Source of the DNA: a virus
Virus record (IMG/VR): IMGVR_UViG_3300019487_000022
Location: 89,241 to 123,806 of that record
DNA: 34,566 nucleotides
Reading direction: 5' to 3' (one strand)
Shown: positions 5,681 to 33,418 of the stretch, one piece after another
Layout: each line of letters starts with the position of its first letter
Numbering within the stretch: the first letter of the stretch is position 1
The notes under the pieces: generated by a model
What the model saw: the letters and a program-made list of their open reading frames with translations, nothing else
Told to the model about the DNA's origin: nothing
Database searches by the model: none
Position numbers and translations under genes: made by a program

Positions 5681-5754
5681 TGCGTCACGGTGGGACTTGA
5701 ACCCACAACCTGAAGATTTGAAATCCTCCGCTCTGCCAATTGAGCTACGTGAGC
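5681..5754 (-). tRNA. tRNA with UCA anticodon (opal suppressor-type), acceptor stem with one bulged C
   Basis: GCTCACG/CGTGA(C)GC-A; D-arm GCTC/GAGC; anticodon arm GAGGA-TTTCAAA-TCTTC; 5-nt variable loop (not a tRNA-Sec body); T-arm GTGGG-TTCAAGT-CCCAC. Confidence 0.88.
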
Positions 5755-19163: not shown

Positions 19164-19293
19164 TGGGACAGGCGGGATTCGAACCCTAACAGTATTGCTA
19201 CTGTAGCTGACAGTTCATGTGTTCGCGACGGGACATGCTGTCAACGCATCTGTCGATTAGAGGTCTCTATCGGCTTACTTAGCCCACTGTCCC
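19164..19293 (-). ncRNA. 130-nt tRNA-like RNA with a 59-nt structured insertion in the T-stem
   Basis: Acceptor GGGACAG/CTGTCCC-A; D-like GGCT/AGCC; GCG-[insert]-GG-TTCGAAT-CC-CGC; no canonical anticodon arm. Confidence 0.75.
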
Positions 19294-19295
19294 AA

Positions 19296-19370
19296 TACGC
19301 CCGAGGGGATTTGAACCCCTAAGCATCTCCTTCTAAGGGAGATAGGTTTGCCAATTTCCGTCACAGGCGT
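19296..19370 (-). tRNA. tRNA with TAG anticodon (Leu), short variable loop
   Basis: ACGCCTG/CGGGCGT-A; TCTCC-CTTAGAA-GGAGA; 5-nt variable region; AGGGG-TTCAAAT-CCCCT. Confidence 0.88.
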
Positions 19371-23468: not shown

Positions 23469-23981
23469 CTATTTTAACATTGTTTGCATTACAGGATTGC
23501 AATACGCACGTCTCCAAAAATCTAATGTTTCTTCTCCAACCTGAGAGACATTCGCTCTTGCAACTATTTCAGCTTCGCTATAAAAAACAAAAGATTCTTT
23601 TCTCAATCCAAATAATCTTAAACTTCTAATGATTCGCGTAATACGTAATAAATTATGATTGCGAAAAGCACACCAAGATTGTTTATCTACATTCCAATGA
23701 TTACCTATTCCATAAAATAAACGAAATCTCTCAAGACAACTTAAAATATTAGTTGTGGCTTTATCTGAACTTTGAAGAATTTTTATATCTTCTTCTGTTA
23801 AAACAGGCCCATTAAAATTATGCCGTGAAGTCTCATGCAAAGGGAATAGCCATTGAATCCAAGTATGACTTTTTTCAAGATCCCAATCAGAACTGTTAAT
23901 CATCTGTTTTAAAGTTATGCCTTCATCATTTGGTAAATCATTAATATAGAAGTCTAAAATTTTTGATGTATATTTAGTCAT
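23469..23981 (-). CDS. opioid growth factor receptor (OGFr)-like domain protein
   Basis: LE-x-x-H-x-WIQWLFPL and NHNLLRITRIIRSL motifs. Confidence 0.85.
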   Translation of the reverse strand: MTKYTSKILDFYINDLPNDEGITLKQMINSSDWDLEKSHTWIQWLFPLHETSRHNFNGPVLTEEDIKILQSSDKATTNILSCLERFRLFYGIGNHWNVDKQSWCAFRNHNLLRITRIIRSLRLFGLRKESFVFYSEAEIVARANVSQVGEETLDFWRRAYCNPVMQTMLK

Positions 23982-26020: not shown

Positions 26021-26106
26021 TGGATGATGGAGGAGTTGAACCACTTGCCTGTCCGCCCGATTTAATTAGGCAACCGGGTTACAGCCGGTCATCGGGAACA
26101 TCATCC
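26021..26106 (-). ncRNA. D-armless tRNA-like RNA with GTA anticodon and a 9-nt T-stem insertion
   Basis: GGATGAT/ATCATCC-A; ACCGG-CTGTAAC-CCGGT; CCCGAT/ATCGGG helix replaces the D-arm; GGA-[CAGGCAAGT]-GG-TTCAACT-CC-TCC. Confidence 0.75.
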
Positions 26107-26183: not shown

Positions 26184-26218
26184 ATAGGCATCTATTCAGT
26201 TTTCAAAGAACTCACAAG

Positions 26219-26301
26219 AGACTGGGGTGAGATTCGAACTCACGTTGTCTTTCGACAGTCGCTTTGCAGGCGACCCCATTTGTCCACTCTGGCACCCAGT
26301 C
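26219..26301 (-). tRNA. tRNA-Cys(GCA) with long variable arm
   Basis: GACTGGG/CCCAGTC-U73; GTCGC-CTGCAAA-GCGAC; variable hairpin TGTC-GAAA-GACA. Confidence 0.9.
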
Positions 26302-26310
26302 AACTATTAA

Positions 26311-26327
26311 CGGAGAGGTAATGGAAT
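26311..26327. repeat. duplicate of the tRNA-Ser 3' end (16/17 match to 26975-26991)
   Basis: cggagaggtaatggaat vs cggagaggtaatagaat, flanking the endonuclease gene. Confidence 0.8.
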
Positions 26328-26373: not shown

Positions 26374-26985
26374 ATGAAAACATCGTGTTCAGACTGCAAT
26401 AATACCTTTGATAAAAAATCTTATGAAATTAAACGCACTAAATATCATTTTTGTTCTCTTAAATGTTGGTCAAATTTTCAAAATAAGAAAAAACCAACTA
26501 AAATTAAAGTAACATGTGCAACTTGTGGTTTTAACTTTTTTAAAATTCCAGCAGAGATCTCTAAAACTGGTAATTCTTTTTGTAACCGTTCTTGCGCTGT
26601 TGTGTTTAATAACCGTAAAAAACGTAAAAGCAGACGTTCTAAAGCAGAAAAAATGCTTTTTGATTTATTAAATAAATCTTTTCCTAACCTTCCTATTCTT
26701 GCAAACGACAAATCATTATTAGATGGTTTAGAAATTGACATAGCTTTTCCTAGTCTTAAACTTGGCATAGAATGGAATGGTATAGTCCATTTTAAACCAA
26801 TTTTTGGTACACAAAAATTTCTAAAAATTCAACACAACGATATCAGAAAACAAAAAATAGCGTTTGAAAAAGGCATTCACTTAATTGTTGTGCCAGATCT
26901 TGTTTCTACTAAATCCTATGTTGAGGACGCTGCAATGAGCATCAAACAGATCATAACATCTCTGCTTGATAAACCGGAGAGGTAA
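26374..26985 (+). CDS. free-standing endonuclease: Cys-rich zinc-binding repeats + DUF559/Vsr-like PD-(D/E)xK domain
   Basis: CxxC...FCSxxC repeated twice; S-x-x-E, LEIDIAFP-x3-LGIEWNG-x-x-H; antisense to the tRNA array. Confidence 0.8.
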   Translation: MKTSCSDCNNTFDKKSYEIKRTKYHFCSLKCWSNFQNKKKPTKIKVTCATCGFNFFKIPAEISKTGNSFCNRSCAVVFNNRKKRKSRRSKAEKMLFDLLNKSFPNLPILANDKSLLDGLEIDIAFPSLKLGIEWNGIVHFKPIFGTQKFLKIQHNDIRKQKIAFEKGIHLIVVPDLVSTKSYVEDAAMSIKQIITSLLDKPER

Positions 26986-28001: not shown

Positions 28002-28064
28002 CCATTCTAAAACCGAACCTTTGATAAACCATCCTCCGTTTCATCATTTCTCCATATAAAATAA

Positions 28065-28094
28065 AAAAGCCCAGTTTTTTAGGACTGGGCTTTT
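28065..28094 (-). terminator. intrinsic terminator of the attenuator (3:4 hairpin)
   Basis: AAAAGCCCAGT-8nt-ACTGGGCTTTT followed by TTATTTT. Confidence 0.9.
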
Positions 28095-28122
28095 CAGGAA
28101 ACTGTTATTGTTCGTTTTACCG

Positions 28123-28209
28123 TTACATAACAGAACCAGCCCAGCTATTGCTATACGAAAGCAATAGACTATAATAACATGAGCTGGATAATGATAAGTT
28201 ACGGTTCAT
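28123..28209 (-). CDS. attenuator leader peptide MNRNLSLSSSCYYSLLLSYSNSWAGSVM (not in ORF track)
   Basis: 28 codons; codons 5-20 are all Ser/Leu/Tyr/Cys; overlaps the anti-antiterminator and antiterminator segments. Confidence 0.8.
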   Translation of the reverse strand: MNRNLSLSSSCYYSLLLSYSNSWAGSVM

Positions 28210-28223
28210 TTTAAATCTCTACC

Positions 28224-28457: not shown

Positions 28458-28558
28458 TATTCTTATGTCATCAGTTCTCTGGAGATTCCTTCAACAAATT
28501 CACAAAATTTATTGAAAATAAAGTTTAAACCTTATTTTATCACATAAAACCGATAAAA

Positions 28559-29543: not shown

Positions 29544-29575
29544 ACACCTCATAGTATTTGCTTACTATGAGGTGT
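29544..29575 (-). terminator. 13-bp hairpin with U-run whose 3' arm contains the RBS of the protease gene
   Basis: ACACCTCATAGTA/TACTATGAGGTGT followed by TTTTATG. Confidence 0.65.
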
Positions 29576-29594
29576 GGTTTAAATCCTTTTATAT

Positions 29595-29790
29595 AATGTT
29601 AGGGCTAAGACTATCCTTAATATAAATCCATTTCTGAATGTATATTAAAGAAAAAGAGTAAAAGATTGTGTCTTACGGATTGCATTTTGCACCTTGTAGA
29701 ACGATGTATCATGTATCTTGAGGCGCAATCGATTTCCGTATAAAACGATTTGTTTTATTTACACCTTCTTGTCATCTTCGCCCTAACATT
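29595..29790 (-). ncRNA. putative ~196-nt structured RNA with internal 7-nt periodic repeats
   Basis: 11-bp terminal stem AATGTTAGGGC/GCCCTAACATT (+4 bp); long GAAA-capped hairpin with G-U pairs; eight imperfect heptamers at 29666-29724. Confidence 0.65.
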
Positions 29791-33176: not shown

Positions 33177-33185
33177 ATAATTAAT

Positions 33186-33302
33186 AGAAGAAGGAATTTC
33201 ACCCTCGACAATTAAGATACCTTAGAATTTCCTAATTGCTGGCGGCTACATCCTCTAAGGTTAGTCTCGCCGCCCTCTTAAGCCAGAACTACTCCACTTC
33301 TT
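33186..33302 (-). ncRNA. putative structured RNA with two kissing hairpins and a T-loop-like arm
   Basis: GGCGGC/GCCGCC and GCAATTAGGA/TCTTAATTGT hairpins whose loops ACCTTAGA/TCTAAGGT are complementary; AGGG-TGAAATT-CCTT; AGAAG/CTTCT closing stem. Confidence 0.6.
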
Positions 33303-33418
33303 ATTATTTCTGGAGAAACCTTCTTTTTGCACTTATATTAGCCGATTAAACAAAAGGAATACCTATTAAATAATCACAATTAAATTATAAGAAAATATTT
33401 CACACTCAATAAACTTTT

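Follow-up and report, generated by a model that had tools for sequence, protein, structure and literature searches.

In the pheST attenuator of E. coli, the pheM leader controls a synthetase, in response to a single amino acid and in a cellular genome. In the T-box riboswitches, uncharged tRNA is bound directly by the RNA without any need for translation, and such a device would switch off if the tRNA were destroyed. The described systems closest to the locus presented here are the multivalent attenuators of thr, ilvGMEDA and ilvBN, together with those of trp, his, leu and pheA (PMC1183508). In this study, we describe a phage locus that, judged from its sequence and from folding models, is very probably a ribosome-mediated transcription attenuator gating the phage's own Ser/Leu/Tyr/Cys (S/L/Y/C) tRNA genes in a feedback loop on tRNA supply. 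It has in common with the enterobacterial amino-acid attenuators a leader ORF with regulatory codons, mutually exclusive helices and an intrinsic terminator, and in both the leader stop codon lies about 30 nt before the terminator stem. Its predicted mode of working is that of the thr/ilv multivalent attenuators, and the leader codons, the terminator, the exclusive helices and, in our models, the placement of the regulatory codons all conform to it. In contrast to the enterobacterial systems, the predicted targets of the phage unit are not biosynthetic enzymes but tRNAs, the sensed molecules themselves; its leader would respond to four amino acids and 10 isoacceptor classes, sampling codons broadly instead of repeating one sensitive codon; and another ORF stands between this leader and the candidate promoter.

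The locus would share with pheST a feedback from the level of charged tRNA onto a component of the translation apparatus. Like the T-box riboswitches, it would let tRNA status decide between terminator and antiterminator; however, no Rfam T-box match (stem I specifier loop, T-box bulge) was found at the locus. No Rfam leader family matched at its gathering threshold, the Thr_leader model giving a sub-threshold hit at 28060-28174 (21.7 bits against a gathering value of 55, E = 3.6). Phage tRNAs, tRNA-Tyr among them, are also the subject of work on counter-defence, in which they make good the loss of host tRNAs and the expression level of a T5-like tRNA-Tyr decides rescue from the retron-Eco7 PtuAB system; the control described there is a strong promoter, and attenuation is not mentioned (PMC11555353). 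The original prediction knew of no described attenuator controlling a phage tRNA operon in this way, and no attenuator of tRNA genes was found in the literature searched, in which subscription journals were poorly covered. The mechanism itself is textbook knowledge for amino-acid genes; tRNA genes as its target are new as far as could be found.

The window, that is, the whole stretch of 34,566 nt analyzed here, lies at the end of a linear virus contig of 123.8 kb (IMGVR_UViG_3300019487_000022). The completeness of the contig is estimated at 26%, and therefore the whole phage would measure about 470 kb, which makes it a giant (jumbo) phage. The major capsid protein of the phage shares 53% identity with the counterpart in Bacillus phage G and 65-79% with the capsid proteins from 80 uncultured jumbo-phage contigs. 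The nearest named cellular homolog of its RNA ligase belongs to a Phycisphaerales bin (63%), a weak hint that the host might be a member of the Planctomycetota. An independent 184-kb assembly (ENA contig) is 100% identical over the locus and has the same end point, hence zero variants, so that a one-off assembly error is unlikely. Coordinates of the main features are given in Table 1.

Table 1. Position and description of the main features of the locus in window coordinates
Feature	Coordinates	Strand	Description
Candidate sigma70-like promoter, extended -10	28562-28534	minus	Consensus match only; such matches are no commoner than in shuffles
77-codon hypothetical ORF	28457-28224	minus	Between promoter candidate and leader; not mentioned in the original prediction
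Leader peptide ORF	28209-28123	minus	28 sense codons and TAA
Sensor run	28197-28150	minus	Leader codons 5-20; 16 consecutive Ser/Leu/Tyr/Cys codons
1:2 helix	28187-28180 with 28143-28136	minus	Encloses hairpin 28167-28160/28152-28145
2:3 antiterminator	28145-28138 with 28091-28084	minus	Encloses hairpin 28133-28127/28108-28102
3:4 intrinsic terminator with U tract	28095-28056	minus	28095-28084 with 28075-28064; 12-bp stem, 8-nt loop
S4-domain-like small protein	28037-27801	minus	First gene behind terminator; resembles TyrRS C-terminal domain; phrog_28515, E = 3e-9
tRNA block, probably gated	27796-16734	minus	Tyr(GTA), Ser(GCT, TGA x2, GGA, CGA), Cys(GCA x2), Leu(GAG, TAA, CAA, CAG, TAG x2)
RNA ligase, DRB0094 family	23441-22419	minus	TIGR02306, 242 bits, above cut-off; within block

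Leader peptide and predicted RNA switch

The uninterrupted run of 16 S/L/Y/C codons on which the original prediction was built is present in the leader ORF as described. It is the longest such run in the contig (123.8 kb, six frames), the runner-up having 12 codons and the longest run within long ORFs having 7, and it was not reached in 100,000 dinucleotide shuffles of the leader ORF. S/L/Y/C codons account for 18 of 27 leader codons as against 20% in the phage ORFs (binomial P = 2e-7). The amino-acid set used in these tests was fixed beforehand, since it is set by the downstream tRNAs. We also confirm that all six Ser codons and four Leu codons occur in the leader, and that Leu(CAG) is the sole anticodon class of the block for which the leader has no codon; the sensor run has codons for the other 10 of the 11 classes. 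The presence of the complete set of Ser codons departs only modestly from expectation (P = 0.06) and the coverage of isoacceptor classes has P = 0.04, so the synonymous spread is suggestive, not strong. The present leader samples eight of nine Ser/Leu classes, as do those of two relatives (P = 0.04, 0.06 and 0.14), and across the five leaders tested isoacceptor sampling is weakly significant.

The leader is present as a single copy in its own contig. One DNA-pattern search of metagenome contigs returned no close homolog, another gave 63 matches, none with a terminator or a tRNA behind it, and blastn of the locus against phages found tRNA fragments only. As these searches gave no close homolog, there is no fine covariation for the leader; the leaders of different phages are too divergent in a plain alignment for a covariation count.

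The leader region has a folding z-score of -5.2. Computation of alternative folds recovered all three of the predicted helices and an antitermination that depends on the ribosome footprint; formation of the antiterminator excludes both the terminator and the 1:2 helix. The register first proposed for the 1:2 helix (28188-28182/28146-28140) had to be corrected: the best register (Table 1) is better by about 3 kcal/mol and covers the antiterminator core more fully. In the model, the 1:2 element is a protector and a probable pause hairpin. Chance does not account for the antiterminator, whose pairing gain is -12.9 kcal/mol as against -3.9 kcal/mol with shuffled upstream sequence, with 1 of 500 shuffles equaling it.

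The ribosome was modeled as a footprint on the nascent RNA, and the probability of the antiterminator was calculated for each A-site codon. This probability exceeds 0.9 for codons up to and including 18, falls to 0.24 at codon 19 and is 0 from codon 20 onward. Since the 2:3 helix is lost at codons 18-20, the sensor run ends where the ribosome starts covering segment 2; in the footprint model, stalling on the regulatory codons leaves segment 2 free, whereas a ribosome that keeps moving covers it. The leader ORF, its codon match to the tRNAs, the set of mutually exclusive helices and the overlap between sensor run and antitermination window are all read from the sequence or computed from it.

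At equilibrium, the terminator is the preferred fold of the complete RNA whatever the state, and nascent RNA without a ribosome favors 2:3 over 1:2 (-34.1 vs. -30.5 kcal/mol). Because equilibrium favors otherwise, the switch would rest on estimated kinetics, in which 1:2 forms first and persists, and 2:3 persists against 3:4. The barriers are estimated at about 15.5 kcal/mol for the passage from 1:2 to 2:3 and 11.9 kcal/mol for the persistence of 2:3 against 3:4. The trp-type attenuators are known to behave likewise.

We propose that RNA polymerase would start upstream, probably near 28527, and that the leader would receive a ribosome, possibly one that re-initiates once it has translated the 77-codon ORF. 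With charged Ser, Leu, Tyr and Cys tRNAs in plentiful supply, the ribosome would pass codon 19-20 and cover segment 2, 3:4 would form, and transcription would stop at about 28060. Slow decoding of any S/L/Y/C codon would cause the ribosome to lag on codons 5-18, masking segment 1; 2:3 could then form before segment 4 is made, and the polymerase would read into the tRNA block. As the tRNAs of the block read the slow codons, the outcome would be a negative feedback on tRNA supply. When the leader is not translated, 1:2 would form first and become kinetically trapped, and the default state is thus probably off.

The transcript and the probably gated tRNA block

The best promoter candidate is located 325 nt upstream of the leader, with the 77-codon ORF between them, and would be the likely start of the leader-carrying transcript. 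There is no convincing promoter directly before the leader, and the leader has a weak SD. The stop codon of the 77-codon ORF overlaps this SD-like AAGG, and the two ORFs may therefore be translationally coupled. In three relatives a promoter-like site stands directly before the leader, 10-45 nt from its start, which suggests that the 77-codon ORF may have been inserted here and may supply the leader with ribosomes. A homolog search with this ORF returned only the ORF itself, and a separate comparison gave weak resemblances to hypothetical phage proteins (score 0.80).

From 34566 down to 15000, the minus strand has just two intrinsic terminators that were found, one at 29575 and the other at 28095. 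As no further terminator was found down to 15000, read-through could span the whole 11-kb block. Promoter-like sites occur inside the block (e.g., 24506-24479 and 25446-25417), and the distal genes may have further promoter inputs. Upstream of the locus, a non-coding stretch at 29544-29790 ends in a strong terminator-like hairpin (29575-29544) directly before a 326-aa ORF.

As the original prediction had it, every tRNA of the block on the leader strand is Tyr, Ser, Cys or Leu (13 ARAGORN calls), and we add a 14th, the Ser(TGA) at 27060-26976, which is missed at the ARAGORN default and seen at a lower threshold. Twelve of the 14 are longer than 80 nt, one Cys tRNA with a long arm among them. 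The tRNA-Cys at 26218-26301 has the long variable arm and the tRNA-Leu(TAG) at 19296-19370 is short, a combination found in the relatives G008 and G011 too. Two tRNA-like elements, at 26021-26106 and 19164-19293, are called by neither ARAGORN nor Rfam; the former carries an anticodon arm with GTA (Tyr). A 203-aa zinc-finger/endonuclease-like ORF (26374-26985, plus strand) is located between tRNA-Ser(TGA) and a copy of the tRNA's 3' end near 26322, and a relative of this ORF is present in the tRNA region of another phage (G007).

Elsewhere in the window, the pair of Thr tRNAs has neither leader nor terminator, and the RNA preceding it folds no better than shuffles (z = -1.0). The non-coding DNA upstream of tRNA-Thr(GGT), at 33177-33330, has two hairpins with complementary loops and gives no Rfam match. 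A 73-nt tRNA with a TCA anticodon and no long arm, at 5682-5754, is probably an opal suppressor or Trp-type tRNA and not a tRNA-Sec.

About 27 ORFs are interspersed among the tRNAs of the block, and the genes downstream of the switch are tRNAs and mostly hypothetical ORFs. Relatives in other tRNA regions were found for only 2 of the 27 ORFs tested, and the encoded proteins look like passengers. No enzyme that makes, imports or attaches the sensed amino acids was found among those of the block ORFs that were scanned. The suggestion that the switch may also control the RNA ligase found no support: no intrinsic terminator was found between the two, but the closest homologs of the ligase are not behind tRNA blocks and other S/L/Y/C units are without such a ligase. 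The ligase is adjoined by a protein with an OGFr_N domain (23469-23981), a relative of which occurs in a tRNA region of G008.

The first gene behind the terminator matches an S4/SYY_C-terminal cluster with a score of 0.90, which is to be read as a lead only. Its start is uncertain, since the ATG served by a strong SD at about 28053 is in a different frame; the 5' end of the gene may be frameshifted, as far as the sequence tells. Homologs of this gene stand in unrelated contexts. An RNA-binding protein in this position, together with a switch whose kinetics are estimated, could point to stalling by the nascent peptide, a small molecule or a protein (of the TnaC, ErmCL or whiB7-uORF type) or to a switch operated by an RNA-binding protein, the codon match being incidental. 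We consider this very improbable: what is conserved is the match to the local tRNA set and not the peptide sequence, and the S4-like gene is missing from the other units compared.

Matched leaders in other phages

A pattern built from the switch helices only, and blind to codons, was found at 43 viral loci, 3 of which have tRNAs right behind the terminator. In all 3, the leader matches its own, different set of tRNAs: Tyr/Phe/Leu/Trp/Cys (L014), Pro/Gln/Tyr/Thr/Gly/Lys (L030, in a phage with four such units) and Ala/Cys/Asp (L018). For 7 units taken together, the actual assignment of leaders to blocks is the best of 5040 permutations, and without this window it is the best of 720. Automatic leader calling on the tRNA regions of capsid-related jumbo phages covered 44 blocks, of which 24 have a called terminator and 20 are testable, this window and two near-duplicate pairs included. 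The match score of these 20 units (sum z 66, permutation maximum 37.5) was reached in 0 of 20,000 permutations.

The median antiterminator gain is -11.8 kcal/mol for terminators that head tRNA blocks (n = 29) and -3.9 kcal/mol for other terminators in the same DNA (n = 32; p = 2e-8). In 18 units, picked by eye, codons matching the block make up 185 of 281 (66%) inside the modeled antitermination window and 38 of 146 (26%) outside it (Fisher p = 3e-15).

The S/L/Y/C unit is also found in other phages. In G008, a leader with 13 S/L/Y/C codons in a row precedes 15 Cys/Tyr/Leu/Ser tRNAs (L152), and this unit has neither the CTG codon nor the CAG tRNA. In G020, an S/L/Y/C/G leader precedes a Tyr/Leu/Ser/Cys/Gly block, behind an atypical terminator. 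The cultured phage Tunturi_5 (PP885688.1) has 15 consecutive S/L/Y/C codons starting at 231156, a terminator and nine Leu/Cys/Tyr/Ser tRNAs; the footprint cut-off is the same, and the two other blocks of this phage are also leader-matched. Across the three units the helix sequences differ while pairing and architecture are kept. The Tunturi_5 leader is not annotated in the database record, and the genome paper makes no mention of attenuation (PMC11924767). A tRNA nucleotidyltransferase gene adjoins the Tunturi_5 S/L/Y/C block on the opposite strand (L244/L248, 233135-234583 of the same record).

Matching extends to other tRNA sets. In Bacillus phage G, gp86 (L246, NC_023719.1 58381-58515), annotated without function, has Cys/Asp/Phe/Tyr/Glu/Thr/Ser/Trp codons, which correspond exactly to the eight tRNAs behind it, though its modeled switch is less clean. 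Leader attenuation is considered rare in Firmicutes, and phage G is a Firmicute phage. In G001, the tRNAs of one block (L049; Tyr, Phe, Tyr, Leu(TAA), Trp, Cys) all read U-starting codons, being the MiaA-modified set, and its leader matches.

The leader-gated design is not universal. A called terminator is missing in 20 of the 44 tRNA blocks of capsid-related phages. In G011, which is among the closest relatives (78% capsid identity), the Cys/Leu and Ser blocks are without leader or terminator, and a promoter-like site stands directly before the first. No matched leader was found for the second block of phage G or, with the leader detector used here, in the XacN1 tRNA region. Ungated blocks of this kind and the promoter-like sites inside the block would suit a leader that is a chance short ORF before the ordinary terminator of an upstream gene, with the tRNAs transcribed from internal promoters. 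This explanation is most improbable, as the run statistics, the permutation tests and the antiterminator control put chance far out of reach, and a search of the non-coding DNA that separates the terminator from tRNA-Tyr found no promoter candidate. Support for the attenuator reading comes from the footprint model, the antiterminator control and the match of codons to tRNAs across unrelated units.

Possible triggers and biological significance

It seems that two triggers could account for such an attenuator, and the balance between them is near even. By one account, which we find tenable if somewhat short of an even chance, the switch would be a detector of a host defense that destroys tRNA, tuned to tRNAs with a long variable arm (class II) plus Cys, and replacements would be released upon removal of these tRNAs by a nuclease or toxin. 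The length of the block tRNAs is consistent with this, and the same grouping recurs in G008, G020, G011 and Tunturi_5. Moreover, the leader samples isoacceptors broadly, in contrast to the most starvation-sensitive codon favored in amino-acid attenuators (PMC1183508), and a strongly expressed phage tRNA-Tyr does rescue phage from retron-Eco7 PtuAB (PMC11555353). However, the relatives G008 and G002 gate nearly every block, for all amino acids, with matched leaders, and the groupings vary (Gln with Ser, Leu alone, Tyr/Phe/Leu/Trp/Cys), which indicates a general device and not one adjusted to a single nuclease. Nor do the bacterial Schlafens described to date show specificity for class II tRNAs (PMC13056530, PMC13462974).

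By the other account, to which we give very nearly an even chance, the switch would serve general supply and demand: it would answer to any slow decoding, be it from amino-acid limitation, decay of the tRNA pool or codon mismatch in the course of infection, and would save the cost of tRNAs that are not needed. A ribosome cannot distinguish an uncharged tRNA from an absent one, and partitions of the whole code into leader-gated blocks do exist. Against this, extra tRNA is no cure for amino-acid starvation and could dilute charging, and blocks that are gated separately are more readily explained by selective loss of tRNAs. A wider proposal, which we put forward as rather doubtful, is that jumbo phages across several host phyla carry a modular surveillance of tRNAs, with the tRNA genes sorted into blocks and every block headed by a leader sampling its isoacceptors, in which destruction of particular tRNAs by host immunity switches on the replacements. 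The S/L/Y/C unit would then be the long-variable-arm module and would point to an undescribed bacterial defense that targets class II tRNAs.

If the attenuator operates as proposed, it would be, as far as could be found, the first in which the sensed tRNA is itself the output, and the first case of phage tRNA genes placed under inducible control by the translation state of the host. The S/L/Y/C unit of Tunturi_5 and gp86 of phage G make the switch testable now in cultured phages, and leaders of this type could act as reporters for tRNA-cleaving defense systems. Codon compensation and counter-defense are the two main answers given to the long-standing question of why phages carry tRNAs. A switch by which each tRNA block depends on slow decoding of its own codons would give a direct test of them, for whatever induces it during infection is what the tRNAs are for.
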